Positions 21,569-41,042 of a DNA stretch of 64,000 nucleotides are shown piece by piece. The notes beneath the pieces were generated by a model. It ran no database searches and was not told the DNA's origin. It saw nothing but the letters and a program-made list of their open reading frames with translations. Source of the DNA: Armatimonadota bacterium (GTDB lineage Bacteria; Armatimonadota; SYMT01); the NCBI GenBank assembly GCA_041690135.1, contig JAWLHY010000013.1, forward strand, positions 148,921 to 212,920, given 5' to 3'. A program made the translations under genes and the position numbers. Position 1 is the first letter of the stretch. Each line of letters starts with the position of its first letter.

Positions 21569-24100
21569 ATGTTCAATCGCTCGGCTTTCGAAAACTCCCG
21601 CCCCGCCGGGATCCCTACGCTCGAGATCACCACTACGGGACCGTTTCCCGAGGCGGGAGTTCGCCGGTTCATCCCGCTTCAGAAGACGGTTCTCGAGGGA
21701 GAAATCGCGGGACCGCTGGCCTCCCTCACGCTGACGCAGGTCTTCGCGTTTACGAAGGAAGACCTGCCCCGCCCCGTTGAGGCCGTCTATCGGTTTCCGC
21801 TGCCCGGCGATGCCGCCGTGATCCAGGTCTGCGTGACGTTCGGTGAGGTGCGCATCGAGGCCGCGCTGCGGGAGCGCCCCGAGGCGGAAGCGGAATACGA
21901 TCGCGCTCGTGGCGAAGGGCGGCAGGCTGCCCTCGCCACCCGGGAGTCGCCGGATGTCTTCACTCTGCAGGTAGCCGGTATCGCACCGGGACAGGAAGTC
22001 CGGGTCGAGACGCGCTTCGTGCTCCTGGCCCATCCGGAGGGTGACGGATGGTCGCTGCGGGTTCCGCTGACGGCGGCCCCGCGCTACGTCCGCGCGGACG
22101 AACTCGGCTCCCGGCACGCGGAGGGCCAGCCCCTGGCCCTCCTCCGGGACCCCGGGCACCGGTTCGGCCTCAACCTATCCCTGCGCCACACCGAGGGCAT
22201 CGCTTCCCGGACACACCGTCTCACCTTTACTCCGGACGAAGATGCGACCCGCGTGGCATTAGCCGATGGTGAAGTGATCCCGGACCGGGACTTCGTGCTG
22301 ACCTGGACCGGCACGCGGGAGGAAACGCGCCCTACTCTGCGCGTAGAACTCCATCCCGATCCGGCGGAGGACCGGCTCTATTTCATGGGCCTGGTCACGC
22401 CACCCCGCCGGGCCGACCAGGTCACGCCCGATCCGCGAGAAATCCTCATCCTGGTGGACCACTCCGGGTCGATGAGTGGAGCCAAGTGGGAAGCGGCCGA
22501 TTGGGCCGTCAAGTCGTTCCTTTCCACCCTGACGGAGCGTGACCGCTTCAACCTGGGCCTCTTTCACGACAAGACGCGGTGGTACTCTCGGTCTCCCGTT
22601 CCGGCCACGCCTCAGCAGGTGGAGGCAGCCGTCGAGTTCCTGATGAAGCACCGGGACTCCGGAGGCACGGAACTGGGGGTTGCCCTGGAACAGTCGCTCA
22701 AACAGTCCAGGTCCGAGGACCCGGCGGCCCGGCACGTCCTGATCGTAACCGATGCCCAGGTGTCGGACAGCGCCCGCCTGCTCCGGCTCGTCTCCGCGGA
22801 GGCCAACCGGCCCGACCGCCGGCGGGTGAGCGTGATCTGCATCGATGCCTCTCCCAACTCATTATTGGTGCGAGAGCTTGCCGCGCGCGGTGGCGGTCAG
22901 ACCCACTTCCTCACCAGCTCTGCGGAAGAAGGCGACATCACCACCGCTCTCGATGAGTTGCTCATCAGTTGGTCCGCCCCGATCTTCACCGGCTTGCGGC
23001 TGGAAGTCGATGCGACCGCGGTAGAGACTCCTGAGGGTCCGGGGCACGAAACCGGAAACGGGTCCACCTGCATCGACCTGGGTGAGCTCCCGGCGGAGCG
23101 CCCTGTGTGGGTTGCCGGCAGGGCGCCTGCTTCCCGCCTGGACCAGCTCCGGCTCCGGTTGAGCGCAGATGGCCAGCCGGTGGCGACATGCCGGATGCCG
23201 ATCGGCTCGCGCTCGCTCCCGGCGGTAAAGACTCTGTTCGGCGCTCGCCGGGTGCTTGCCCTGGAATACCTGGCGGAAGCGCGCTATTCCGCGCCGGAGC
23301 TGGCGGCGGAGCTCCGCCGGCTCGGCTATTCTGAAGCCGAGATCGGTGGGGAGTCGGATGCGGGTTCCCTGTATTCGGAGAACCGCGGCGCTGCGGGGCG
23401 CGATGCCCTGCGTCCCCTGCTCGTGCGAGAAGCGCTTGCGTGCGGTATCGCTTCCGCGGAGACAGCGTTCGTTGCGACCCGCGCCGAAGCCGGAGAACCG
23501 ATCTCTGGGACGGTTTACGTAGCCAACGCCCTGCCGGAGGGCTGGTCCGACGACTTCGTGGGAGGAGCGATGTACGGCGCGGCTTTCGCGGCGGCGCCGC
23601 CATCTGCCCTGGCGGGTCCCCCGCTTGCCAGCAGCAGCCGCAGCATCGATGCCATGAGCGGTGCGTTTGATCTCGGCGGTTCCGGTGTCTTCGAACGCGT
23701 CGGGCGGATCAAGTATAAGAAGGTCGCCGAGCCACAGTCGGAAGAGGAGCCCCTTCTCTTGTTCGCGGGCTGCCCACACTTCCAGGCTGGAGAAGCGGTG
23801 CTCTACGATTCCGAGGCTGAGAACAGTCCCCGGATTGGCTCGCGACTACAGCGCCTCTGGCTCCGGCTCCTGACGGCGCCAGCAGAACCACAGCAGGTTC
23901 CGCGCGACCTGATGCTCCTGGTGTATGTCGGCGACCATTCGGTCCCTCGGGCGAAGGTCGCGGTCCGCGCGTTGCTGTCGCAAGGGGCGAGGCCGCTGAA
24001 CCTCACGGTTCGTCCCGGAGAGCAAGTGCGCCTGGTGTTGGTCGACCCCTCCGCGGCCTGGGGTGGTTGCCCTCCGAAGATCGAGGTGCGCATCCAGTAA
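21569..24100 (+). CDS. VIT and vWA domain-containing protein
   Basis: EAVYRFPLPGDAAV (VIT); MIDAS DHSGSM, GGTEL, VTDAQV; AGGAGG RBS. Confidence 0.88.
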   Translation: MFNRSAFENSRPAGIPTLEITTTGPFPEAGVRRFIPLQKTVLEGEIAGPLASLTLTQVFAFTKEDLPRPVEAVYRFPLPGDAAVIQVCVTFGEVRIEAALRERPEAEAEYDRARGEGRQAALATRESPDVFTLQVAGIAPGQEVRVETRFVLLAHPEGDGWSLRVPLTAAPRYVRADELGSRHAEGQPLALLRDPGHRFGLNLSLRHTEGIASRTHRLTFTPDEDATRVALADGEVIPDRDFVLTWTGTREETRPTLRVELHPDPAEDRLYFMGLVTPPRRADQVTPDPREILILVDHSGSMSGAKWEAADWAVKSFLSTLTERDRFNLGLFHDKTRWYSRSPVPATPQQVEAAVEFLMKHRDSGGTELGVALEQSLKQSRSEDPAARHVLIVTDAQVSDSARLLRLVSAEANRPDRRRVSVICIDASPNSLLVRELAARGGGQTHFLTSSAEEGDITTALDELLISWSAPIFTGLRLEVDATAVETPEGPGHETGNGSTCIDLGELPAERPVWVAGRAPASRLDQLRLRLSADGQPVATCRMPIGSRSLPAVKTLFGARRVLALEYLAEARYSAPELAAELRRLGYSEAEIGGESDAGSLYSENRGAAGRDALRPLLVREALACGIASAETAFVATRAEAGEPISGTVYVANALPEGWSDDFVGGAMYGAAFAAAPPSALAGPPLASSSRSIDAMSGAFDLGGSGVFERVGRIKYKKVAEPQSEEEPLLLFAGCPHFQAGEAVLYDSEAENSPRIGSRLQRLWLRLLTAPAEPQQVPRDLMLLVYVGDHSVPRAKVAVRALLSQGARPLNLTVRPGEQVRLVLVDPSAAWGGCPPKIEVRIQ

Positions 24101-24474
24101 GCCGGGTACCTTTTGAACTCGTCCAGACCTGCTCGCGGCCCGCGTCCCGGCAATATGCCGGTACGTGGGCCGCCGCTGTTTGCTTTCCACTGCAACCGGA
24201 TGGGCGCTCATCATTCTAGCCGTTCGGCTGCCGGACCCCATATCGTCAACTTAGTAAGAACGATTGAGATAATCCGTTTCACCCTGGCCTATCTGTGGCA
24301 TGGGGAGGGCGGAGGCGGTAAAGGGCCGATTAACATCCCCATACCACCGCTCCTTCCAAACACTCCCCCGGTTCGGCCCGACGAACCTGCCATGCACTTG
24401 TGGTGGGACTGGCGGCAAGCTCTAAGTAAGAGCACGGAAATGGGGAAGTGTCGCGACCTACGGCAGGAAGAAGT

Positions 24475-24708
24475 ATGACGGATCAAGTTCAACAGGTTTT
24501 CGCGTCCGTTCTGAAGGTGGAGCCCGCTTCGCTTACGGACCACAGCACGCCGGAAAACACCCCCAACTGGGACAGTCTCAACGCGATGCGATTGGTGTCG
24601 GCCATCGAGGAGACATTCAAAGTCGAGTTGACGACCCGCGAAATCGTAAAGATGCGCAGTCTGGCGATTGTGCGCGAAGTCCTACGGAAGAAGGGTGTCC
24701 ATGTCTGA
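24475..24708 (+). CDS. Acyl carrier protein
   Basis: 77 aa; WDSL phosphopantetheine motif; stop overlaps the FkbH start. Confidence 0.88.
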   Translation: MTDQVQQVFASVLKVEPASLTDHSTPENTPNWDSLNAMRLVSAIEETFKVELTTREIVKMRSLAIVREVLRKKGVHV

Positions 24709-26569
24709 GCGGTTCGCGAGTCTGGTCGAGGCGGCTCGGTCTGCCACGACCCCTTTGGAAAGCCGCACCTGCTGGCAGGAGTGCAGTCTCCTATTCGAGT
24801 CGACCGCACCGCGGATGATGCGGGTGGCGCTCTGCGGCACGTTCACCACCGAGCAATTGGAGCCCTACGTGGGACTGGCGCTGCTCAAGCACCGGATCGC
24901 GGCGCAGATTCAGCACTCGCCGTTCAACCAGGTGTACCAGGAGTTGTTGTCCCCTGGTTCGACGCTCCGTCGCTCGCCGGCGCCGGATGTGGTGGTGCTG
25001 CTGTGGCGCATGGAAGAACTGCTGGCGGAAGCGCTGCAGGTTCTCTCCCAGGACCCGGTGGCGGCTCGCGAGACGGCCGAACGGGAGTTGACGCAGTTCA
25101 TGCAATGCCTGCGCGTGTTTCTGGACCAATCCTCGGCCAGCGTGATCGTTTCGAACCCGCCGCGTCCATCAGTGCGGCCCCTCGGATTGATCGATGCCCG
25201 GCTGGACGAAGGAGTCGCGGCCCTTCATGCCGAGGTGCTGTCGATGTGGCGCCGCCTGGTCAACGCGGAGCCGCGTCTCCACATGCTCGACCTGGACGGC
25301 GCGCAGCGGGACTTTGGGGCCAGGGCCGCCGCCAATCCCAAGATGTGGCTGCTGGCCCGCATGCCGTGGTCGGAGCCGTTCTGTCTGGAAGTGGCCGCCC
25401 AGGCCGCTCGCGTCGTGAGGGCGCTGGTCACGCCGCCCCGCAAGGTCCTGGTAATGGACTGCGACAATACCCTCTGGGGTGGTGTGGTCGGCGAAGACGG
25501 GCCACTGGGCGTGGACGTGGGTGAAGACGCACCCGGCAATGCCCATGCCGAACTGCAGCGGTATGCGCTGGCCCTCCGGCAACAAGGGATTCTGCTGGCC
25601 ATCGTCAGCAAGAACAATGAGATGGATGCCTGGGAAGTCTTCGACCGTCACCCGGGGATGGTGTTGAAGCGGGAACACCTTGCCTCCTGGCGGATCAACT
25701 GGCTGCCGAAGGCGCAAAACCTGCGCTCGATCGCCGAGGAGCTCAAGCTCGGCTCGGACAGCCTGGTGTTCATCGACGACAGCCCGGCGGAGTGCGCCGA
25801 GGTGCGGGCGAACGCCCCGGAGGTGTTGACGATCCATCTCGACTGCGATCCCTCCCGGTTCGTCGAGCGCCTGGAAGAGGCGTGCGCATTCGACCGACTC
25901 AGCCTGACGAGGGAGGACGTCAAGCGCGCCGAGATGTACTCGCAGGAGCGCCAGCGGGAAACGCTCCGCGCGAGCGCGACCTCGATGGAGGACTACCTCG
26001 CAGGGCTCGATCTCACGGTGCGGATCGAACGGGTGGGCGAAGAGCACCTGCAACGGGTTACCCAACTCGTCAACAAGACCAACCAGTTCAACATGACGAC
26101 CATCCGCCGGACGGAGGCGGAAATCCGCGCCCTCTGGCAGGACCCGAGCTGGCATCTCTTCGCGGTGTGGGTGAGCGACCGGTTCGGCGATTATGGCCTC
26201 ACCGCCGTTTCCATCTGCCAGTCCCGAGGGCCGGAGTGGTTCCTCGATACCTTCCTGATGAGCTGTCGCGTGCTGGCCCGCGGGGTGGAAACGAGCCACC
26301 TGGCCTGCCTGGTGGCCGCCGCAGGAGCGGATGGTAAGGGGAAACTGCGCGGCCAGTACCTTCCCAGCGCGAAGAATGCGATGGCCGCGGATGTCTACCG
26401 GAACCACGGCTTCGAGGACCTGGGGGATGGTTGGTTCGCGCGCTCGACGGATGCGCCGATCCTGGTTCCGTCTCACCTCCGGTTGGAGGGCTCCGCGGTG
26501 GTGGGTCTCGACCTCCGTCGTGCTCCGGCCCGTGTGCCGGAAGCCCAAGCCCTACGCCCAGCAGCCTGA
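24701..26569 (+). CDS. FkbH-like HAD-IIIC phosphatase/glyceryl transferase
   Basis: DCDNTLWGG, SKN, INWLPK, FIDDSPAEC, KTNQFN, DRFGDYG, MSCRVL.RGVE. Confidence 0.93.
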   Translation: MSERFASLVEAARSATTPLESRTCWQECSLLFESTAPRMMRVALCGTFTTEQLEPYVGLALLKHRIAAQIQHSPFNQVYQELLSPGSTLRRSPAPDVVVLLWRMEELLAEALQVLSQDPVAARETAERELTQFMQCLRVFLDQSSASVIVSNPPRPSVRPLGLIDARLDEGVAALHAEVLSMWRRLVNAEPRLHMLDLDGAQRDFGARAAANPKMWLLARMPWSEPFCLEVAAQAARVVRALVTPPRKVLVMDCDNTLWGGVVGEDGPLGVDVGEDAPGNAHAELQRYALALRQQGILLAIVSKNNEMDAWEVFDRHPGMVLKREHLASWRINWLPKAQNLRSIAEELKLGSDSLVFIDDSPAECAEVRANAPEVLTIHLDCDPSRFVERLEEACAFDRLSLTREDVKRAEMYSQERQRETLRASATSMEDYLAGLDLTVRIERVGEEHLQRVTQLVNKTNQFNMTTIRRTEAEIRALWQDPSWHLFAVWVSDRFGDYGLTAVSICQSRGPEWFLDTFLMSCRVLARGVETSHLACLVAAAGADGKGKLRGQYLPSAKNAMAADVYRNHGFEDLGDGWFARSTDAPILVPSHLRLEGSAVVGLDLRRAPARVPEAQALRPAA

Positions 26570-26585
26570 ATTAGGGGGTATCCAT

Positions 26586-27947
26586 ATGACCATGCTGCGT
26601 GAACTCGCGGAGTGGTTTGGGTCGCACAACCCGTTGCTGCAGGCGCTGGCCTTACTGCCGCTGATGTTGTGCTACTGGGGAGCCGCAGCGGCGGTAGCGG
26701 CGCTTCCCGGCGCGAAAGCCGGCGTCCCCAACGCCACCGTCAAAGCGCCCCCGCCGGTCCGGTTTCTGCGACGCTGGCTGCTGCCCCCCTATGGGGCGGC
26801 CGCGGCGCGACAGTTCGTGATGCTGTCGACATCGCTGCTGTTTCTCTTCTACATGACCCGGAGCCCCGCCCAGATAGCCGGTCTCCTGGCGATTGGCACC
26901 TTCTCCTTCGGAGTCGCCTGCCTCATCGACCGGACGAAAGGGCCGGGAAAACGGGGCTGGCTGCTGGTGGGCCTGGCGATCACTCTCGGGTGGCTGATCG
27001 GGTTCAAGTACCTGGAGTTGATCTCGCAGGGCCTCAATGCGGCCCTGGCTGGCATGGGACGCGGGGAGATCAGCCTTCCCAAGCTCTTCGTGCCGTTGGG
27101 CATCTCCTATTACGTGTTCCGGATGATCTCTTACCAGGTGGAGGTGTACTGGGAAGAAGCTCCACGGGTTAGCCTGCTGGAGTACCTCCATTACCTGGCG
27201 TTCTTCCCCACCCTGGTAGCGGGACCGATCGAGCGGATCGGCCCGTTCCACGAACAGGACCAGAAGGCGAAGTTCTCGGCGGAGGATACGGAGGCCGGGC
27301 TCCGGCGGATGGTCCTGGGGATCGGCAAGAAGGTGCTGCTGGCCGATCTGGTGGGCGGTCTCGTGCTGGGCTGGCCCATTGGACATCCGGACACTCCCAT
27401 ATGGATGGGACCCGTGGTGTTCTACATGTTCTGGTGGCGGCTCTACTGGGACTTCTCGGGCTATTCCGATATCGCGATCGGCGCGGCCCGGCTGTTCGGC
27501 TACCGGATCGTGGAGAACTTCGACCGGCCGTTCCTCGCCGTGAACATCCAGGACTTCTGGCAGCGGTGGCACATCTCACTCTCGTTCTGGATCCGGGACT
27601 ACCTGTATTACCCGCTCGTGACGATGCGGCAGGGACGGAAGTGGGGCGCGAACTGGACCTACCTCGCCTTGGTGGTGAGCATGGGGCTCTGCGGCCTCTG
27701 GCACGGAGCGAGCGTGCAGTTCCTCTATTGGGGCCTGTATCACGGGCTGGGCCTGGCCGGGCTTGCCGCCTACCAGGAGTTCAAACGCCGACGCCTGGCG
27801 AGCTGGACCTGGCTGGAAGCCCCCGCCGTCCGCTGGTTGAATGTGTTTCTCACCTTCAACTTTGTCACGGTCGGTCACTGGCTCTTCCTGCAAACAGGAT
27901 GGCTGGTTCCCCATGCGTGGATGAGGGGCCTGTTGGGCTGGGGCTAG
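26586..27947 (+). CDS. MBOAT family O-acyltransferase (DltB/AlgI-like)
   Basis: PLGISYYVF, FFPTLVAGPI, DFSGYSDIAIG, ENFDRP, FWQRWHISLSFW, GLWHG. Confidence 0.93.
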   Translation: MTMLRELAEWFGSHNPLLQALALLPLMLCYWGAAAAVAALPGAKAGVPNATVKAPPPVRFLRRWLLPPYGAAAARQFVMLSTSLLFLFYMTRSPAQIAGLLAIGTFSFGVACLIDRTKGPGKRGWLLVGLAITLGWLIGFKYLELISQGLNAALAGMGRGEISLPKLFVPLGISYYVFRMISYQVEVYWEEAPRVSLLEYLHYLAFFPTLVAGPIERIGPFHEQDQKAKFSAEDTEAGLRRMVLGIGKKVLLADLVGGLVLGWPIGHPDTPIWMGPVVFYMFWWRLYWDFSGYSDIAIGAARLFGYRIVENFDRPFLAVNIQDFWQRWHISLSFWIRDYLYYPLVTMRQGRKWGANWTYLALVVSMGLCGLWHGASVQFLYWGLYHGLGLAGLAAYQEFKRRRLASWTWLEAPAVRWLNVFLTFNFVTVGHWLFLQTGWLVPHAWMRGLLGWG

Positions 27948-27959
27948 GCAGAGGAGTGG

Positions 27960-28937
27960 ATGTGGATGAATGAGGGTCAACTTCAACGGACCAGAAATAC
28001 TGCGTCCGGTCTCATCACGCTGGTGCTGGCGGCGCTTCTCGCTGTGCCGTTGACCCGTGGCGTGCTCGGTTCGGATGCGGTCCGGTCCTCTCTTGGGGTG
28101 GAAGTCCTCCGGCACGCGCGCCCGGGTGGGGACCGCAGCTATGACCACATGTTGCACAAGACGGTGGAACTGGAGCGGAAGCCCCCAGCCGCAGGGGAAC
28201 GCTTTATCTGCCTGACCGGCAGCTCGGTGATCATGCTGAACGTCGGCCTCCCCCAGATGCGGGAGGCGCTGGCGCACCACCTGCCGGGGCAGCCGGTCCG
28301 TCTGGAGAAGCTCACGGGTGGCCATGCCACCGTGCGCGACATCCGCCGGTGGCTGGAGCACCTGCCAGGCCGCAAGCCGGAGATGCTGGTGTTCGGCGTG
28401 TACTACAACACGCTGCAACCCTCGCACCGTCGTCCGGACATGCGCCTCTGGTTTCCGCCGGACAACGCCACCTATCTCCGCGCGATCTACGTCTCCGCAA
28501 CGGTGAACGTCCACACCGAATGGGACCCCGACGGCCCCGAGCCCCGTTTCACAGATGAGTGGTCGCCCAAACGCTGGCCCGCCGACTCGGACCGGCTCCT
28601 GCGTCCGTACGACCCATTTCCGAACGCGGAGACGGAAGCCCTCGCCGACTTTGCGCGCTACTGCCGGGAGGAGGGGGTCCGGTTGGTGCTGGTCCGCACG
28701 CCCATCAACCCGGCGTTCTACCCCGTCTACCGGAAGGCACGCCACTACGAAGCGTACGGCGAGGCCCTGGAAGCCACCCGCGAACACGGCGCTGAAGTCT
28801 GGAACCTGGAAACAGCCCTGGGTGAAGACCCGAAGCAGTTCCACGACCTGGTCCACGTGAACGCCACGGGTCACGAGCGGTTCAGCGCGTTACTGGCGGA
28901 GCGAATTGCGCAATACCTGCAGGGGCTGAAAAACTGA
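27960..28937 (+). CDS. SGNH-like/DltD-like membrane-anchored acyl transfer protein
   Basis: N-terminal TM; TGSS putative nucleophile motif; C-terminal DLVHVNATG (DxxH); follows the MBOAT gene. Confidence 0.7.
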   Translation: MWMNEGQLQRTRNTASGLITLVLAALLAVPLTRGVLGSDAVRSSLGVEVLRHARPGGDRSYDHMLHKTVELERKPPAAGERFICLTGSSVIMLNVGLPQMREALAHHLPGQPVRLEKLTGGHATVRDIRRWLEHLPGRKPEMLVFGVYYNTLQPSHRRPDMRLWFPPDNATYLRAIYVSATVNVHTEWDPDGPEPRFTDEWSPKRWPADSDRLLRPYDPFPNAETEALADFARYCREEGVRLVLVRTPINPAFYPVYRKARHYEAYGEALEATREHGAEVWNLETALGEDPKQFHDLVHVNATGHERFSALLAERIAQYLQGLKN

Positions 28938-28974
28938 TGGCGCCGGTTCGGTCGTCTTCTGGAAATGACCGTCC

Positions 28975-29600
28975 CGGCTTGTAGTAGCATGGCTTTAGCC
29001 CGCGTCCTCTCGCGAGCCGGGAACCGAGCCCCGCCCCGGATTCCGAACTCGCCTGCCGGTACAAGAAGGCAGTCCAACTCGTAGTAGCATGGCTTTAGCC
29101 CGCGTCCACTTGGGAGCTGGGTCCCAGAATCCCGTCCCGCATCCCGAACCCATCGGGGGCTTTGGAGGGAGTCCGGACGCCAGTTCGGGGTTCGGATTCG
29201 GTAATCGCAAAGGGTGCCGGACTACGTCCGGACTCCCACCCCGCGCTGGGAGTGGGGCTTGTTCTCTACTACTCGGCTACGAACGAGCGCCTACCACCGG
29301 ACTTCGAAGTTGGCGGCGTGCGAGAAGGCAGTCCGGACGCTACTCTGGGGTTCGGGCACGGCGGTGGCAAGTGGAACCGGGCAACGTGTTGGGGGAAGTA
29401 TCCGAACAGTTCTTGACCGCTTGGCCCGAGCCTGTTTCTCCACTCAGGTCGGCGAGCCTTGCCGGAGTGACGGCGCTTGCGCGGCCCTCATGTGGTGTAC
29501 CGTATCTGCTCCGTTACTTCCACACCCCCCTTAACGTCCAGACTCCCACCAATGCTGGGAGTGAGGTTCGTTCCCTGCTATTCCGCTACGAACGAGCCCC
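28975..29600. repeat. Cluster of REP-like repeats (left of the TPR gene)
   Basis: 27-nt GTAGTAGCATGGCTTTAGCCCGCGTCC at 28981 and 29081; multiple GGAGTCCGGAC/GTCCGGACTCCC units; duplicated GCTACGAACGAGC. Confidence 0.75.
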
Positions 29601-29642
29601 ATCCGTTACCGGGCGTGCCAGGCCCATCCGTGGAACAGAACG

Positions 29643-30761
29643 CTATCTGGCACGACGCCGGGCCTCTTCCCCATCGCATTCCACGGCATGGGATCGGGCT
29701 GCATCCGCCCCCTCCGAGTCCCCGAGCGCCTGCCGGATTTCCGCCATCTCTCGCCATCCTTCGGCTTCCGGGTGACCCGATGTACAGCCCGGTCGCAAAG
29801 GATTGTTCAGCCACCCATCGAGGAACTCATGCGCCTCGTCTACCCGATTTGTCTTCCGGAGAGCGCGGGCAAGTTCGGGCGCCACGCACCAAATTTCCCT
29901 CTGACCTAATTGCTCGTCGTAGAAGGCGAAGGCATCATCCACTCGCCCTAACCCCAGCAACGCTTCGAGCTTAAGCGCGAGAAAGTCCCCTCCGAATCGC
30001 TCCGGTAGCTTGAGCGCCGTCTCTGCGTAATGCAGCGTCTCCGTATGGAAACCGTTGTCCATCAGAATCCGGATCATTTGGGCCTCGCGGTTGCCCGGTC
30101 CCCATCCAAACCTCACCCAGAGCTTGAGCGCCTGCTTGCATTGGGAAGCGGCATCCTCGTTCGCACCCAATTCGGCCATCCAGTGGGCCAGGGTCCAGCG
30201 CTTCCAGAAGGACTCGGGTCCGATACGAAATGCTTCCACATCCATGTCGAAAAGGAGGTCGTCGGCTTCAGGAAGCCGGTGCGATGCCTCTCGGTATGCG
30301 GTGATTGCTTCTTCGTTTCGGCCACACTCTCGCAGGCAGTTACCCAGTTCCATCCAGGTATCAGGAGTTGAGGGATCAAGGAGTACCCTTCGCCGCATTA
30401 GGATGAGCAACTCTTCGGATGACTCAATCGCCTGCAGCGTTCGAGCGGGTAAAGTCTTGGTGAGGTGGGTGTATAGCTCTGGGACCTGTGGTAAACGCAG
30501 GAGAATCTCTCGCAAAGCAGCTCGGTCTGCTGTTCTGCAAGCCAGTTTCCAACGCCACCCGATTTCTCCCGGATTCAATTCCACTGCTCGTTTCCATGCC
30601 TCACATGCATCCGCCGGATTTCTGTAATGAGCGGCGATAACCGCGTGTCCCAGCGAGGAGTCAGGATGGTCGGAAAGATACCGCTCGAGCGCAGCAGCCC
30701 GCGCTTCGTACTCGTACCTGCCAAGCGGAATTGTTTGGAAGAGCACTTCCTCTTCGGTCAT
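29643..30761 (-). CDS. Tetratricopeptide repeat protein
   Basis: TPR-like units (AWKRAVELNP, TWMELGNCLRECGRNEEAITAYREA); GGAG before the ATG; visibly less GC-rich. Confidence 0.75.
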   Translation of the reverse strand: MTEEEVLFQTIPLGRYEYEARAAALERYLSDHPDSSLGHAVIAAHYRNPADACEAWKRAVELNPGEIGWRWKLACRTADRAALREILLRLPQVPELYTHLTKTLPARTLQAIESSEELLILMRRRVLLDPSTPDTWMELGNCLRECGRNEEAITAYREASHRLPEADDLLFDMDVEAFRIGPESFWKRWTLAHWMAELGANEDAASQCKQALKLWVRFGWGPGNREAQMIRILMDNGFHTETLHYAETALKLPERFGGDFLALKLEALLGLGRVDDAFAFYDEQLGQREIWCVAPELARALRKTNRVDEAHEFLDGWLNNPLRPGCTSGHPEAEGWREMAEIRQALGDSEGADAARSHAVECDGEEARRRAR

Positions 30762-35301: not shown

Positions 35302-35712
35302 ATGGACTACGTAGATCAGCCGCCCAGGAACGAACGATCCCTGGGTGAGTTGTTCCGGGAACTGGGCCAGGAGTTGGCTGACCTGGTGCGGAAGGAAGCG
35401 GCCCTGGCCAAAGCCGAGATGAGCCAGAAGCTATCGCACGTCCTCAAAGACGTCGCCATGATCGCGGCGGGCGGGGCGATAGCGTATGCGGGCTTCCTGG
35501 TGCTGTGCGGCGCGGTGGTGGTGCTGCTGGTGGAGGGAGGCCTCGCCCTGTGGGCATCGGCGCTGCTCGTGGCGGTTGCCGTGGGGCTTGGTGGCGGACT
35601 GCTCATCTGGAAAGGCCTCGATTCGCTGAAGCATGAGGACATGGTCCCACGACAGACATTGGAAACTTTGAAGGAGGAAAGAAATGAGCCCAGGATACGG
35701 CGGGCGGCGTGA
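35302..35712 (+). CDS. Holin-like small membrane protein (DUF1469/Holin-X type), not prophage-associated
   Basis: ERSLGELF...LVRKEAALAKAEM, two TM helices, VPRQTLETLKE. Confidence 0.82.
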   Translation: MDYVDQPPRNERSLGELFRELGQELADLVRKEAALAKAEMSQKLSHVLKDVAMIAAGGAIAYAGFLVLCGAVVVLLVEGGLALWASALLVAVAVGLGGGLLIWKGLDSLKHEDMVPRQTLETLKEERNEPRIRRAA

Positions 35713-37681: not shown

Positions 37682-39622
37682 GTGGACTTGATGGAGCGGC
37701 TTGCACAATACCGTTCGGAGGAAGCGAAGGTCCAATGGGAAGGCAACTTTGCCGAGTATTTCGATCTCGTCAAGGCCAACCCCCGGATCGCTCGGCTCTC
37801 CCACGGCCGGGTATTCGATATGATCATGGCCGCCGGGGTCGAGCGCCGCGGCGAGCAGGAGTTCCCGCACTACGAGTTCTTCGCCGACGAGCTGTTCGGG
37901 CTGGAAAAGCCTTTGCAGCAGATTGTCGAGTACTTCAATAGCGCGGCCCAGCGTCTCGAAGTCCGCAAGCGCATCCTCCTGTTGATGGGACCGGTGGGCG
38001 GCGGCAAATCGACCATCGTCAGCCTTCTCAAGCGGGGCCTGGAAGCCTACTCCCGCTCCGACAATGGGGCGGTGTATTCCATCCGGGGCTGCCCCATGCA
38101 CGAGGAGCCGCTCCACCTGGTGCCGGAAGTGATGCGACCGGACATGGAGAAGGAGTACGGGGTCTATATTGAAGGCGACCTCTGCCCGCACTGCCGTTTC
38201 TACCTGGAACGGGATGGGTCGGAAGTCAACAACCATCCGTTCGGACCGAACTTCCGACGGCTGCATTTCGAAGAAGTGCCGGTGAACCGGATCGTTCTCA
38301 GCGAGAAGCACCGGGTCGGAATCGGCACCTTCACCCCCAGCGATCCGAAGAGTCAGGACATCTCCGAACTGGTGGGCGGCATCGACCTCTCGACCATCGG
38401 TGAAGTCGGGGTGGAGTCCGATCCTCGCGCCTACCGCTTCGACGGGGAGTTGAACATCGCCAACCGCGGCTTGATGGAATTCATCGAAATGCTCAAGTGC
38501 GATGAGAAGTTCCTCTATGTGCTTCTCACCCTGTCGCAGGAGCAGAACATCAAAACCGGCCGGTTCTCGATGATCTACGCCGATGAGGTGGTCGTCTCGC
38601 ACACCAACGAGAACGAGTACACCAGCTTCGTTGGTAACCGGAAGAGCGAAGCCCTCCAGGACCGCATCATCCTGGTGAAGGTGCCCTACAACCTGCGGGT
38701 GAGTGAAGAAGTGCGGATCTACGAGAAGCTGCTCAGCCAGAGCAGCATTCTGCAGAACGTCCACATCGCGCCGCACACCCTGCGCGTAGCCAGCACGTTC
38801 GCCATCCTCACCCGGCTCGAGCCGCCCAAGAAGGCGGGAATGAGCCTGATGAAGAAGCTGCGTCTCTACGACGGCCAGGACGTGGAAGGGTTCACCACCA
38901 AGGACGTTCGCGAGTTGCAGGAGGAGACGGTCCGCGAGGGCATGGACGGCATCAGCCCGCGGTACGTCATCAACCAGCTCTCTCGCGCCCTGATCCAGGA
39001 AGGGGTGACCTATATCAGCCCGATCTCGGCCCTGCGGGCGCTGCGGGATGGTCTCGACCAGCACACCAGCATCACCAAGGCCGACCGGGAGCGTTACCTT
39101 AACCTGATCGACGAGACCCGCCGGGAGTACGACGACCTGGCGAAGCTGGAAGTCCAGCGGGCCTTCGTTTACAGCTTCGAAGAGAACGCGCGGACGCTGT
39201 TGAACAACTACCTCGACAACGTGGAAGCGTTCTGCAACCGGCAGAAGGTGCGCGATCCGATCACGGATGATGAGGTCGATCCGGATGAGAAGCTGATGCG
39301 TTCGATCGAAGAGCAGATCGGCATCACCGAGAATGCAAAGAAGACCTTCCGCGAAGAGATCCTGATCCGGATGGCCGCGATGGCTCGCAAAGGTCAGAAG
39401 TTCGAGTACCACAGCCACGACCGGCTGCGGGAGGCGATCGAGAAGAAGCTGTTTGCGGACCTGAAAGACGTGGTGAAGATCACGACTTCCACCAAGACGC
39501 CGGACGCCGAGCAGCTCCGAAAGATCAACGAGGTCGTCGATCGGTTGTGCAAGGAGCACGGGTACATCCCGGCCAGCGCCAACGAGTTGCTGCGCTACGT
39601 AGGCACGCTGCTCAACCGGTAG
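37682..39622 (+). CDS. prkA: PrkA/YeaG family serine kinase/AAA ATPase
   Basis: LMGPVGGGKS, CPMHEEPLHL, SQDISELVG, ANRGLMEFIEMLKC, EALQDR. Confidence 0.95.
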   Translation: MDLMERLAQYRSEEAKVQWEGNFAEYFDLVKANPRIARLSHGRVFDMIMAAGVERRGEQEFPHYEFFADELFGLEKPLQQIVEYFNSAAQRLEVRKRILLLMGPVGGGKSTIVSLLKRGLEAYSRSDNGAVYSIRGCPMHEEPLHLVPEVMRPDMEKEYGVYIEGDLCPHCRFYLERDGSEVNNHPFGPNFRRLHFEEVPVNRIVLSEKHRVGIGTFTPSDPKSQDISELVGGIDLSTIGEVGVESDPRAYRFDGELNIANRGLMEFIEMLKCDEKFLYVLLTLSQEQNIKTGRFSMIYADEVVVSHTNENEYTSFVGNRKSEALQDRIILVKVPYNLRVSEEVRIYEKLLSQSSILQNVHIAPHTLRVASTFAILTRLEPPKKAGMSLMKKLRLYDGQDVEGFTTKDVRELQEETVREGMDGISPRYVINQLSRALIQEGVTYISPISALRALRDGLDQHTSITKADRERYLNLIDETRREYDDLAKLEVQRAFVYSFEENARTLLNNYLDNVEAFCNRQKVRDPITDDEVDPDEKLMRSIEEQIGITENAKKTFREEILIRMAAMARKGQKFEYHSHDRLREAIEKKLFADLKDVVKITTSTKTPDAEQLRKINEVVDRLCKEHGYIPASANELLRYVGTLLNR

Positions 39623-39884
39623 ACGGTGGAAAGGAAGAACGGCGCGAGGGGGAAGAACGCCGCCCCTCGCGCCCTATAAAGACTTCCGTACAGACGCATG
39701 AAGTGCGTCTTAGAGCGCTGGTCTGGGTAACGGGGATTGGTGTTGCGCGAGTTCCCAGGCCGAGGTAGGCATCACGGATCCCGTATAACGCATTTCGCAT
39801 CACGAAGCAGTCACTACGCGTATCAAGCACCCGCCTGACAAAACCGGGTTCCAGATTACGCAATACGCAATACGCAAATCTCTT

Positions 39885-41042
39885 ATGGCAGTTGCATCGA
39901 TCTCACAGGCAGACTGGTCTCTCCATCGGAAGGGACACATCGACCAGAAGCGGCACCAGGAGAAGATCAAGGAGGCAATTAAGGAGAACCTCCATGAGAT
40001 CGTCAGCCGCGAGGACATCATCCTGTCCGACGGGAAGAAGGTGGTAAAAGTCCCCATCCGGTCGCTGGAGCAATACAAGTTCCGCTTCGACCAGAACAAG
40101 GGCGAAGGCGTAGGGCAAGGCCAGGGCGGCACTAAAGTCGGCGACGTCATCGGTCGAGCCCCTTCCGAAGGGCAGGGCCAGGGTCAGGGTCAGGGTCAGG
40201 CCGGTGATCAGCCCGGTGGCGACTACTACGAAGCCGAGGTCAACATCGAGGAACTGGCTGCTCTGATCTTCGAGGACCTGGGCCTGCCGAACCTGGAAGA
40301 GAAGCGCAACCAGCAACTCGAGGCCGAGAGCGTTACGTTCAAGGACATCCGCCGGACCGGAATCATGTCCAACCTGGACAAGCGGCGGACCATCAAGGAG
40401 AACATCAAGCGGAACGCCAAGCTTGGCGCTGCGAGATTTCAGAACGTGCGGAACGAAGACCTGCGCTTCAAGACCTGGGACCCCGAGATCCGGCACGAGT
40501 CGAACGCCGTCGTCATTGCGATGATGGACGTTTCCGGGTCCATGGGTGAGTTCGAGAAGTATATCGCCCGCAGCTTCTACTTCTGGATGGTCCGCTTCCT
40601 GCGCACGAAATACAACAACGTCGAGATCGTCTTCATCTCGCACCACACGGAAGCGAAGATCGTCTCCGAAGAGGAGTTCTTCACCAAGGGTGAAAGCGGC
40701 GGCACCCGGGTGTCGAGCGCCTACCAGCTGGCTTACGAGGTGATCCAGCAGAAGTACGCTCCATCGGACTGGAATATCTATCCGTTCCACTTCTCCGATG
40801 GCGACAACATGTTCAGCGACAACCGTCTCTGTGTGGAGCTGGTGAAGCAACTCCTGGAAGTCTGCAACCTTTTCGGCTATGGGCAGATCAAGCAGGGCTG
40901 GTATCCGGCGGGCACCCTGATGAGCGTCTACAGCCAGGAGATCGATCACGATAAGTTCGTGGCCGTTACCATTGAGGACAAAGAGGACGTTTATCCGGCA
41001 CTCCGAAAGTTCTTCGCCATCCGCCAGCCGGTAGAGGCCTGA
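39885..41042 (+). CDS. yeaH: YeaH/YhbH (DUF444) vWA-like protein
   Basis: DWSLHRKG..DQ.RHQEK, GQGQG linker, MMDVSGSM, GESGGT, FHFSDGDN. Confidence 0.93.
   Translation: MAVASISQADWSLHRKGHIDQKRHQEKIKEAIKENLHEIVSREDIILSDGKKVVKVPIRSLEQYKFRFDQNKGEGVGQGQGGTKVGDVIGRAPSEGQGQGQGQGQAGDQPGGDYYEAEVNIEELAALIFEDLGLPNLEEKRNQQLEAESVTFKDIRRTGIMSNLDKRRTIKENIKRNAKLGAARFQNVRNEDLRFKTWDPEIRHESNAVVIAMMDVSGSMGEFEKYIARSFYFWMVRFLRTKYNNVEIVFISHHTEAKIVSEEEFFTKGESGGTRVSSAYQLAYEVIQQKYAPSDWNIYPFHFSDGDNMFSDNRLCVELVKQLLEVCNLFGYGQIKQGWYPAGTLMSVYSQEIDHDKFVAVTIEDKEDVYPALRKFFAIRQPVEA

Follow-up and report, generated by a model that had tools for sequence, protein, structure and literature searches.

Which acyl group does a bacterium carry across its membrane when a carrier protein, an FkbH-type loading enzyme and a membrane-bound O-acyltransferase (MBOAT), as well as an SGNH protein, are encoded side by side, and onto what is that group placed? 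The question is raised by four genes on a stretch of 64,000 nucleotides (the window) from an Armatimonadota bacterium (assembly GCA_041690135.1, contig JAWLHY010000013.1, positions 148,921 to 212,920). Pairs of MBOAT and SGNH proteins place acyl groups on peptidoglycan, on alginate and cellulose and on teichoic acids, and thereby shape resistance to host defence and the properties of biofilms. In this study we propose, with a probability of roughly 60%, that the FkbH protein loads glyceryl on the acyl carrier protein (ACP), that the MBOAT moves the group across the membrane and onto a shuttle tyrosine, and that the SGNH protein esterifies an extracytoplasmic glycan with it. The route would be a Dlt-like trans-membrane O-acylation in which FkbH takes the place of DltA, the adenylating ligase; we infer the acyl group, the feed from carrier protein to MBOAT and the acceptor. 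The four genes, in window positions, are as follows.

24475-24708, + strand: discrete acyl carrier protein, 77 aa (PF00550 match)
24701-26569, + strand: FkbH-type loading enzyme, 622 aa (TIGR01686 and TIGR01681 matches)
26586-27947, + strand: DltB-like MBOAT, 453 aa (PF03062 match; matches to DltB in the Protein Data Bank, PDB)
27960-28937, + strand: membrane-anchored SGNH/DltD-like protein, 325 aa (AlphaFold2 model; conserved catalytic blocks)

The first-pass annotation of this stretch had described four tightly linked genes at 24475-28937 with no polyketide synthase (PKS), nonribosomal peptide synthetase or adenylation enzyme nearby, and both statements were borne out. The carrier-protein and FkbH genes overlap by 8 nt (sequence ATGTCTGA), and gaps of 16 and 12 nt separate FkbH from the MBOAT and the MBOAT from the SGNH gene, respectively. 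Purine-rich Shine-Dalgarno-like runs (AGGAAGAAG, AGGGGG and GAGGAG) lie 5' of the starts at 24475, 26586 and 27960, all reading frames are intact, and the GC content at third codon positions (GC3) of the four genes, 0.73-0.85, is coding-like. A promoter-like site was looked for and none was found; the single terminator-like hairpin inside the operon, at 26817, is weak, and shuffled sequences give more. Ketosynthase, condensation and AMP-binding domains were absent from the 41 of 46 predicted window open reading frames (ORFs) that were scanned, and with no AMP-binding domain in this set no adenylating ligase of the DltA type was found. The whole genome gave one FkbH match and one MBOAT match.

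The carrier protein matched the PP-binding family PF00550 (E 2.6e-8), with weak matches to the ACP models of NCBIfam. Its residues W32, D33 and S34 are unchanged in 10 carrier proteins of FkbH loci (alignment A4), and Ser34 of this W-D-S motif is the predicted phosphopantetheine site. The FkbH protein matched TIGR01686 over residues 247-573 (E 1.1e-98) with 330.3 bits, more than twice the cut-off of 146.65, and the HAD-IIIC model TIGR01681 at E 5e-19. Its architecture comprises an N-terminal FkbH_N-like region, for which the Pfam FkbH_N match is sub-threshold, a HAD-IIIC phosphatase and, at the C-terminus, a domain in which S-C-R is invariant; the structure of the uncharacterised protein BF1531 (PDB 3slr) matches its N-terminal two thirds (E 2.4e-37). 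D255, N305, D359, D360, S521, C522 and R523 are kept in all 87 homologues and D253 and T257 in 86 of the 87, the HAD motifs being D253-C-D255-N-T257 (D-x-D-x-T) and D359-D360 (D-D). The conserved catalytic residues and the TIGR01686 score fit the known chemistry on 1,3-bisphosphoglycerate, which for OzmB proceeds through phosphoglyceryl-S-enzyme and glyceryl-S-enzyme to glyceryl-ACP, as outlined in the available text of PMC9057759 and PMC7489565. On this basis the FkbH protein is predicted to move glyceryl from 1,3-bisphosphoglycerate onto the carrier protein, and C522 of the S-C-R motif is assumed, by equivalence to the cysteine of characterised FkbH proteins, to carry the glyceryl thioester.

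The third protein matched the MBOAT family PF03062 (E 7.6e-20), and its sole sequence matches in the PDB are DltB structures (6bug, E 2.6e-37; 8jem, E 4.3e-37), in agreement with the Dlt-like pathway that the first-pass annotation had suggested. H329 and W372-H373 are unchanged in 16 FkbH-linked MBOATs (alignment A3), and the histidine motifs W-H-x-S-L-S and W-H-G are retained. For the MBOAT (A3) paired with the carrier protein (A4), complex predictions run without controls reached 0.28, 0.32 and 0.30, the mark being 0.32, and they count neither for nor against binding.

The AlphaFold2 model of the fourth protein, with a predicted local distance difference test score of 84.3 and a predicted template modelling score of 0.79, shows a single helix at the N-terminus and an SGNH domain after it. 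Foldseek placed SGNH esterases first (5jd3, E 1.5e-6) and the DltD structure 6pfx_B at rank 7, and in VIA-align comparisons the model gave Z 14.5 over 169 aligned residues with the esterase 3hp4, and Z 14.3 (root-mean-square deviation 4.0, 246 residues), 13.9 (245 residues) and 13.3 (246 residues) with the DltD structures 7dxm_A, 3bma and 6o93, respectively. As judged from the model, DltD and plain SGNH esterases tie on Z, and the DltD alignments cover far more of the protein; the SGNH fold that had been predicted for the last gene thus has its longest alignments to DltD. The catalytic blocks are G87-x-S89 (block I) and D296-x-x-H299 (block V), and in 31 homologues of the fourth protein G87, S89 and H299 never vary, while the conservation of D296 is 90% or more (alignment A1). 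The protein is very divergent. A faster homologue search returned only itself and one 87% relative, and an exhaustive HMMER search of 1.84 billion representatives found 38 relatives at E<=1e-3, three of them at <=1e-30. PF04914 (DltD) did not match the fourth protein and matched its 87% homologue at E 0.005; its relatives give weak DltD, DUF1574, GDSL and AlgX matches.

A survey of gene neighbourhoods for the four components, as the first-pass annotation had suggested, found the set together in 19 loci. One genome per species was scanned (185,579 genomes), at least 597 FkbH relatives were found and the best 80 loci were examined, of which 72 have a carrier-protein match and 12 an MBOAT in their flanks. 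The MBOAT-linked loci among these best 80 belong to Hydrogenedentes (L025), Bdellovibrionota, Myxococcota, Acidobacteriota, Pseudomonadota, Campylobacterota and Planctomycetota, the hosts including Micavibrio (L029), Myxococcaceae (L053), Pyrinomonadaceae (L080), Mesoterricola (L083), Rhodospirillales (L082 and L085), Aliarcobacter (L097), planctomycetes (L093, L101 and L104) and Bradyrhizobium sp. ORS 111 (L087), a cultured strain with a complete genome. Taken together, FkbH adjoins an MBOAT and an SGNH partner in the window and 18 other loci, in at least 7 phyla. Among 401 Planctomycetota genomes, 33 have a TIGR01686 match above the cut-off, and in 5 of these 33 an MBOAT lies within ~6 kb of FkbH on the same contig; in a sixth (G126) FkbH and MBOAT are on two separate short contigs. 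All 17 MBOAT-linked loci tested for an SGNH partner have an adjacent protein of 325-447 aa. When 18 partners, including that of the window, were compared with a home-made SGNH profile, 13 matched at E<1e-9 and four more weakly, and one was of AlgX type according to Pfam.

When metagenomes were scanned with the fourth protein, a single further locus turned up, L107. It is the best orthologous locus and is collinear with the window (identities of 55% for the ACP, 52% for FkbH, 41% for the MBOAT and 34% for the SGNH protein) and is surrounded by GT2, GT4, flippase, epimerase and AT3 genes. The cassette lies inside Wzx/Wzy-type or glycosyltransferase clusters in eight loci other than the window (L018, L019, L083, L087, L097, L101, L104 and L107), which points to a surface polysaccharide as the target.

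In the available sections of PMC12148441, DltX is described as a membrane microprotein with a C-terminal F-x-Y-x-x-F motif, the tyrosine of which ferries the acyl group from DltB to DltD, and acyl-CoA-dependent MBOATs are said to bear the shuttle motif on their own C-terminus. Of the 19 loci, 17 have a Y-x-x-F shuttle, which in two (L085 and L087) forms part of the MBOAT and in the other 15 is a separate microprotein (L012, L018, L019, L024, L025, L029, L053, L080, L082, L083, L093, L097, L101, L104 and L107). In these 15 loci a one-helix ORF of 34-51 aa ending in Y-x-x-F adjoins the MBOAT or SGNH gene; the shuttle tails of L018 and L097 start with alanine and were detected by a looser pattern. 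L020 has no shuttle, but this locus is a 2.7-kb contig fragment; of the complete loci among the 19, the window alone lacks a shuttle in cis. Inspection of the C-terminus of the window MBOAT revealed no tyrosine motif, that is, no fused Y-x-x-F shuttle. The Dlt-like gene set of the first-pass annotation stood as far as its four components are concerned; the fifth, the DltX-like shuttle, had been overlooked, is absent from the operon and has an unlinked candidate elsewhere in the genome.

Among 188,185 stop-to-stop segments of the whole genome (G000), two end in Y-x-x-F after a membrane-like stretch. The candidate shuttle is a 61-aa ORF on contig C2 (C2:265652-265834) with the tail F-L-Y-E-G-F, which is 40% identical (16/40) to the shuttle of L107 and has a coding-like GC content by codon position of 0.59/0.44/0.79. 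It was found in one of 31 related genomes, the window's own, a count that says little because a 61-aa query is weak. As far as its sequence can tell, this ORF is likely to encode the shuttle, acting in trans, and it is the weakest link of the model.

The second segment, a DUF5989 microprotein on contig C9, was rejected as a partner because it is part of a carbamoyltransferase-SxtJ cluster. This microprotein (PF19451, E 2.7e-19) has an F-x-Y-x-x-F tail, and its gene lies directly 3' of those for a carbamoyltransferase and an SxtJ-like membrane protein, in a GT4/epimerase cluster (C9:236188-238731, L106:4189-6732, outside the window). The arrangement may point to carbamoyl groups being carried by a tyrosine shuttle.

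The Dlt relay runs from DltC to DltB, to the tyrosine of DltX, to the serine of DltD and on to the polymer, as given in the available part of PMC12148441. The present system resembles it in having a carrier protein that is discrete, a DltB-like MBOAT that keeps the conserved histidine, a DltD-like membrane-anchored SGNH protein with Ser-Asp-His and, in the 15 related loci, a separate one-helix Y-x-x-F microprotein, for which this genome has the unlinked candidate. It differs from Dlt in that there is no DltA-type adenylating ligase, the loader being an FkbH/HAD-IIIC enzyme, in its predicted acyl group, a hydroxy acid instead of D-alanine, and in that the MBOAT, the SGNH protein and the microprotein all fall below the Dlt family cut-offs. 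We know of no teichoic acids in the diderm phyla that host the cassette. Since DltA is missing and three components are below the family cut-offs, the system is not Dlt proper.

PatA/PatB and AlgI/AlgJ/AlgX, which use acetyl-CoA, likewise combine an MBOAT, an extracytoplasmic SGNH partner and an acyl-tyrosine shuttle motif, and L085 and L087, with their motif fused to the MBOAT, are PatA-like, the partner in L085 being of AlgX type. According to the sections available of the 2025 PatA/PatB paper (PMC12148441), MBOAT/SGNH pathways, Dlt excepted, do without a carrier protein, and in the PatA/PatB and AlgI types the motif sits on two extra C-terminal helices of the MBOAT. In the window, by contrast, the MBOAT is without the motif and its gene stands beside those of a carrier protein and the loader of that protein, and thus the system is not of the PatA/PatB type. 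It is assigned to neither Dlt nor PatA/PatB, and would work like Dlt. No characterised pathway of this exact form had been known to the first-pass annotation, and no description of the FkbH-ACP-MBOAT-SGNH architecture was found in the papers that our search of the literature covered.

With the polyketide FkbH/OzmB enzymes (methoxymalonyl-ACP and tetronate units) the window loader has in common a TIGR01686 match well above the cut-off, the HAD aspartates, the invariant cysteine and an adjacent carrier protein. Differences are that no dehydrogenases follow downstream in the window, nor an O-methyltransferase, a PKS or a FabH-like enzyme, that the window FkbH has an extra N-terminal domain of ~240 aa like BF1531, and that a membrane acyltransferase is the predicted recipient of its product, whereas the OzmB-type product goes to a synthase. 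A further system for comparison is the cj1302 locus of Campylobacter jejuni, which presumably also has a carrier protein. The fkbH-domain gene cj1302 belongs to the flagellin glycosylation locus, the glycan of which bears dimethylglyceric acid (PMC7099621, PMC3068675, as far as their available text goes). An FkbH-domain protein in a glycan-modification locus and a glycerate-derived acyl group are thus shared; in C. jejuni the group is an amide on a cytoplasmic nucleotide sugar (pseudaminic acid), the available text of these two sources describes no MBOAT or SGNH protein, and the role of cj1302 is correlative.

The proposed pathway would start in the cytoplasm, where FkbH takes up 1,3-bisphosphoglycerate, its HAD domain would remove the phosphate, and the glyceryl group would be held as a thioester on the invariant Cys522 and then passed to the carrier protein, onto the phosphopantetheine arm at its Ser34. 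The loaded carrier protein would dock at the cytoplasmic face of the DltB-like MBOAT, and His373, with His329, may relay the acyl group through the membrane to the tyrosine of a one-helix Y-x-x-F shuttle, for which the product of C2:265652-265834 is the sole candidate here. The membrane-anchored SGNH protein would accept the group on Ser89, with Asp296 and His299, and esterify an extracytoplasmic polymer at a hydroxyl; this polymer would most likely be a surface polysaccharide or exopolysaccharide.

Several findings weigh against this proposal. A scan for small ORFs in 23500-30000, and then in the whole window, found no Y-x-x-F membrane microprotein. The C2 candidate is unlinked to the operon, its neighbours belong to no Pfam family, and its best Pfam match, although to DltX, has an E value of 0.11 and 12.5 bits against a threshold of 25. 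The MBOAT scored 210.9 bits with TIGR04091 (DltB; E 3.2e-62), below the cut-off of 375, and by its sequence is DltB-like, yet not a DltB equivalog. The Pfam GDSL match of the fourth protein is likewise sub-threshold (E 7.8e-4; 20.4 bits, the cut-off being 32.9), so that its SGNH fold rests on the predicted model instead. The flanks of the window operon hold no glycan-synthesis genes, glycosyltransferases included, among the 41 of 46 ORFs scanned.

The gene neighbourhoods of other FkbH proteins add to these points, and could point to two independent modules that happen to be neighbours: the MBOAT-SGNH pair would O-acetylate a polymer from acetyl-CoA in the style of PatA/PatB or AlgI/AlgJ, and the FkbH-ACP pair would serve a cytoplasmic acyltransferase encoded elsewhere, for example in the N-acylation of an amino sugar. 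No MBOAT is present in 68 of the best 80 FkbH loci, most FkbH-ACP pairs standing beside hexapeptide or GNAT acyltransferases; such neighbours were seen in glycan clusters, hexapeptide acyltransferases in L011, L014, L019, L021, L023, L029 and L083 and GNATs in L026, L027 and L072. L019, L029 and L083 hold both an adjacent hexapeptide transferase and an MBOAT, and there the carrier protein could feed the hexapeptide transferase instead. Moreover, every characterised MBOAT/SGNH pathway except Dlt uses acyl-CoA, as stated in the available sections of PMC12148441. We nevertheless consider independent modules unlikely. No other acyltransferase stands beside the four genes in the window, L107, L012, L018 and L104, the window genes overlap or lie 12-16 nt apart, and the DltB architecture with a separate shuttle, found in 15 of the 17 shuttle-bearing loci, is so far known only from a carrier-dependent pathway, going by the same sections of PMC12148441. 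The linkage in the 19 loci is also clustered on the FkbH tree. In a FastTree phylogeny of 87 FkbH proteins with Shimodaira-Hasegawa (SH)-like supports, the MBOAT label changes 7 times against a shuffled mean of 15.8, with 0 of 500 shuffles as low, a result that loses some of its force for the proposal because related genomes are not independent samples and that is read as clustering, not as a probability. The window FkbH groups with those of L025 and L029, which share the order ACP-FkbH-MBOAT (SH-like support 93). The linkage of FkbH, MBOAT and SGNH genes is more than chance.

The same pathway logic might also serve another acyl group, either a different acid loaded by this FkbH clade or a derivative of glycerate (lactyl, pyruvyl or O-methylglyceroyl) made by enzymes encoded elsewhere. 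Glycerate is predicted here from FkbH family membership, and the substrate of this clade is assumed from the family. Many sister loci carry additional genes: MaoC dehydratase and SDR genes in L080, L082, L083 and L101, the two fused in L053, MaoC alone in L097, methyltransferases in L025, L029, L082 and L097, and Glyoxalase_4 genes in L029, L085 and L087. MaoC and SDR would, as we see it, turn glyceryl-ACP into lactyl-ACP by a dehydration and a reduction, an idea that goes back to the FkbH loading modules of polyketide synthases. The MaoC/SDR genes beside FkbH, separate or fused, lie at the following locus positions.

L017:5200-6549, MaoC/SDR
L053:12464-14053, MaoC/SDR
L080:12413-13565, MaoC/SDR
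L082:6773-7794, MaoC/SDR
L083:12355-13462, MaoC/SDR
L101:6630-7788, MaoC/SDR
L097:12371-12811, MaoC only

The glyceroyl group of the C. jejuni precedent is di-O-methylated, again by the available text of the sources cited above. The window operon and L107, however, have no MaoC, SDR, methyltransferase or glyoxalase genes next to the cassette, so that plain glycerate is the simplest prediction here; the invariance of the HAD and S-C-R residues and a TIGR01686 score at more than twice the cut-off also speak against a different acid, and we give another acyl group a low probability. It is very improbable that the cassette is an incomplete or idle, decaying acquisition in which the MBOAT, lacking a linked shuttle, makes no hand-over to the SGNH protein, for although the shuttle is missing in cis, the operon is isolated from glycan genes and the query used found no FkbH in 5 of 6 genomes of the same family, the four frames are intact, with catalytic residues, coding-like GC3 and Shine-Dalgarno-like sites all kept, and a homologous shuttle ORF is present on contig C2.

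If trans-membrane O-glyceroylation from the carrier protein is correct, the operon represents a second carrier-protein-dependent MBOAT-SGNH pathway besides Dlt, with a new loading enzyme. The Dlt logic, from a cytoplasmic thioester through the MBOAT, the shuttle tyrosine and the SGNH serine to the polymer, would then be general and extend beyond amino acids and Gram-positive bacteria, and hydroxy-acid esters on polysaccharides would gain a genetic basis. Gellan gum bears glycerate esters; to our knowledge the gene behind them has not been established. More tentatively, and at somewhat less than an even chance, FkbH and its carrier protein could be a widespread, portable module that donates hydroxy acids to prokaryotic surface glycans and plugs into hexapeptide transferases, GNATs or the MBOAT-shuttle-SGNH set. 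The MBOAT version would be the first carrier-dependent trans-membrane acylation other than Dlt, forming O-glyceroyl esters, or O-lactyl esters where MaoC and SDR are present, on polysaccharides of diderms in at least 7 phyla, with the shuttle acting in trans in the present genome.

FkbH homologues were also seen in archaeal metagenome-assembled genomes (L032, L036, L041, L062, L076, L086, L090 and L092), the hosts being Promethearchaeota, Thorarchaeota, Nitrososphaerota, Methanospirillaceae and Nanoarchaeota. Archaea generally lack acyl carrier proteins; a carrier-protein match adjoins the archaeal FkbH gene in each of these loci except L062, where the contig stops at the FkbH gene. In L016:5908-9986 (genome G045) an aminoglycoside 3-N-acetyltransferase-like domain lies upstream of the FkbH domain in one ORF of 938 aa, and this fused ORF adjoins a DUF4910/M28 aminopeptidase-like protein. 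Cj1295 of C. jejuni is likewise described as aminopeptidase-like in the available text of PMC3068675.

The upstream neighbours of the operon are, by Pfam, ZnuABC and a VIT-VWA protein, and the downstream ones a TPR protein and phosphoenolpyruvate carboxylase. Two ORFs close to the operon were not counted in the system: that at 24113-24478 belongs to no Pfam family, and that at 29089-29772 (228 aa) has no family match and is probably non-coding, its GC content by codon position (0.64/0.67/0.61) being unlike that of the true genes here. A PADLOC search for defence systems gave no match for the four operon proteins. The 9.1-Mb genome encodes PSCyt1/PSCyt2/PSD1 and DUF1501 proteins and many sulfatases, on the strength of which it was taken for that of a planctomycete. 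Elsewhere in the window, positions 1-21300 form a metal-homeostasis block with two heavy-metal P-type ATPases, a ZIP transporter and ZnuABC, together with an HlyD/AcrB-type efflux pair and its TetR regulator. A holin-X-like protein is encoded at 35302-35709, and at 37682-41039 the gene of a PrkA AAA kinase precedes that of a DUF444 protein, the two being a conserved pair with a link to stress.

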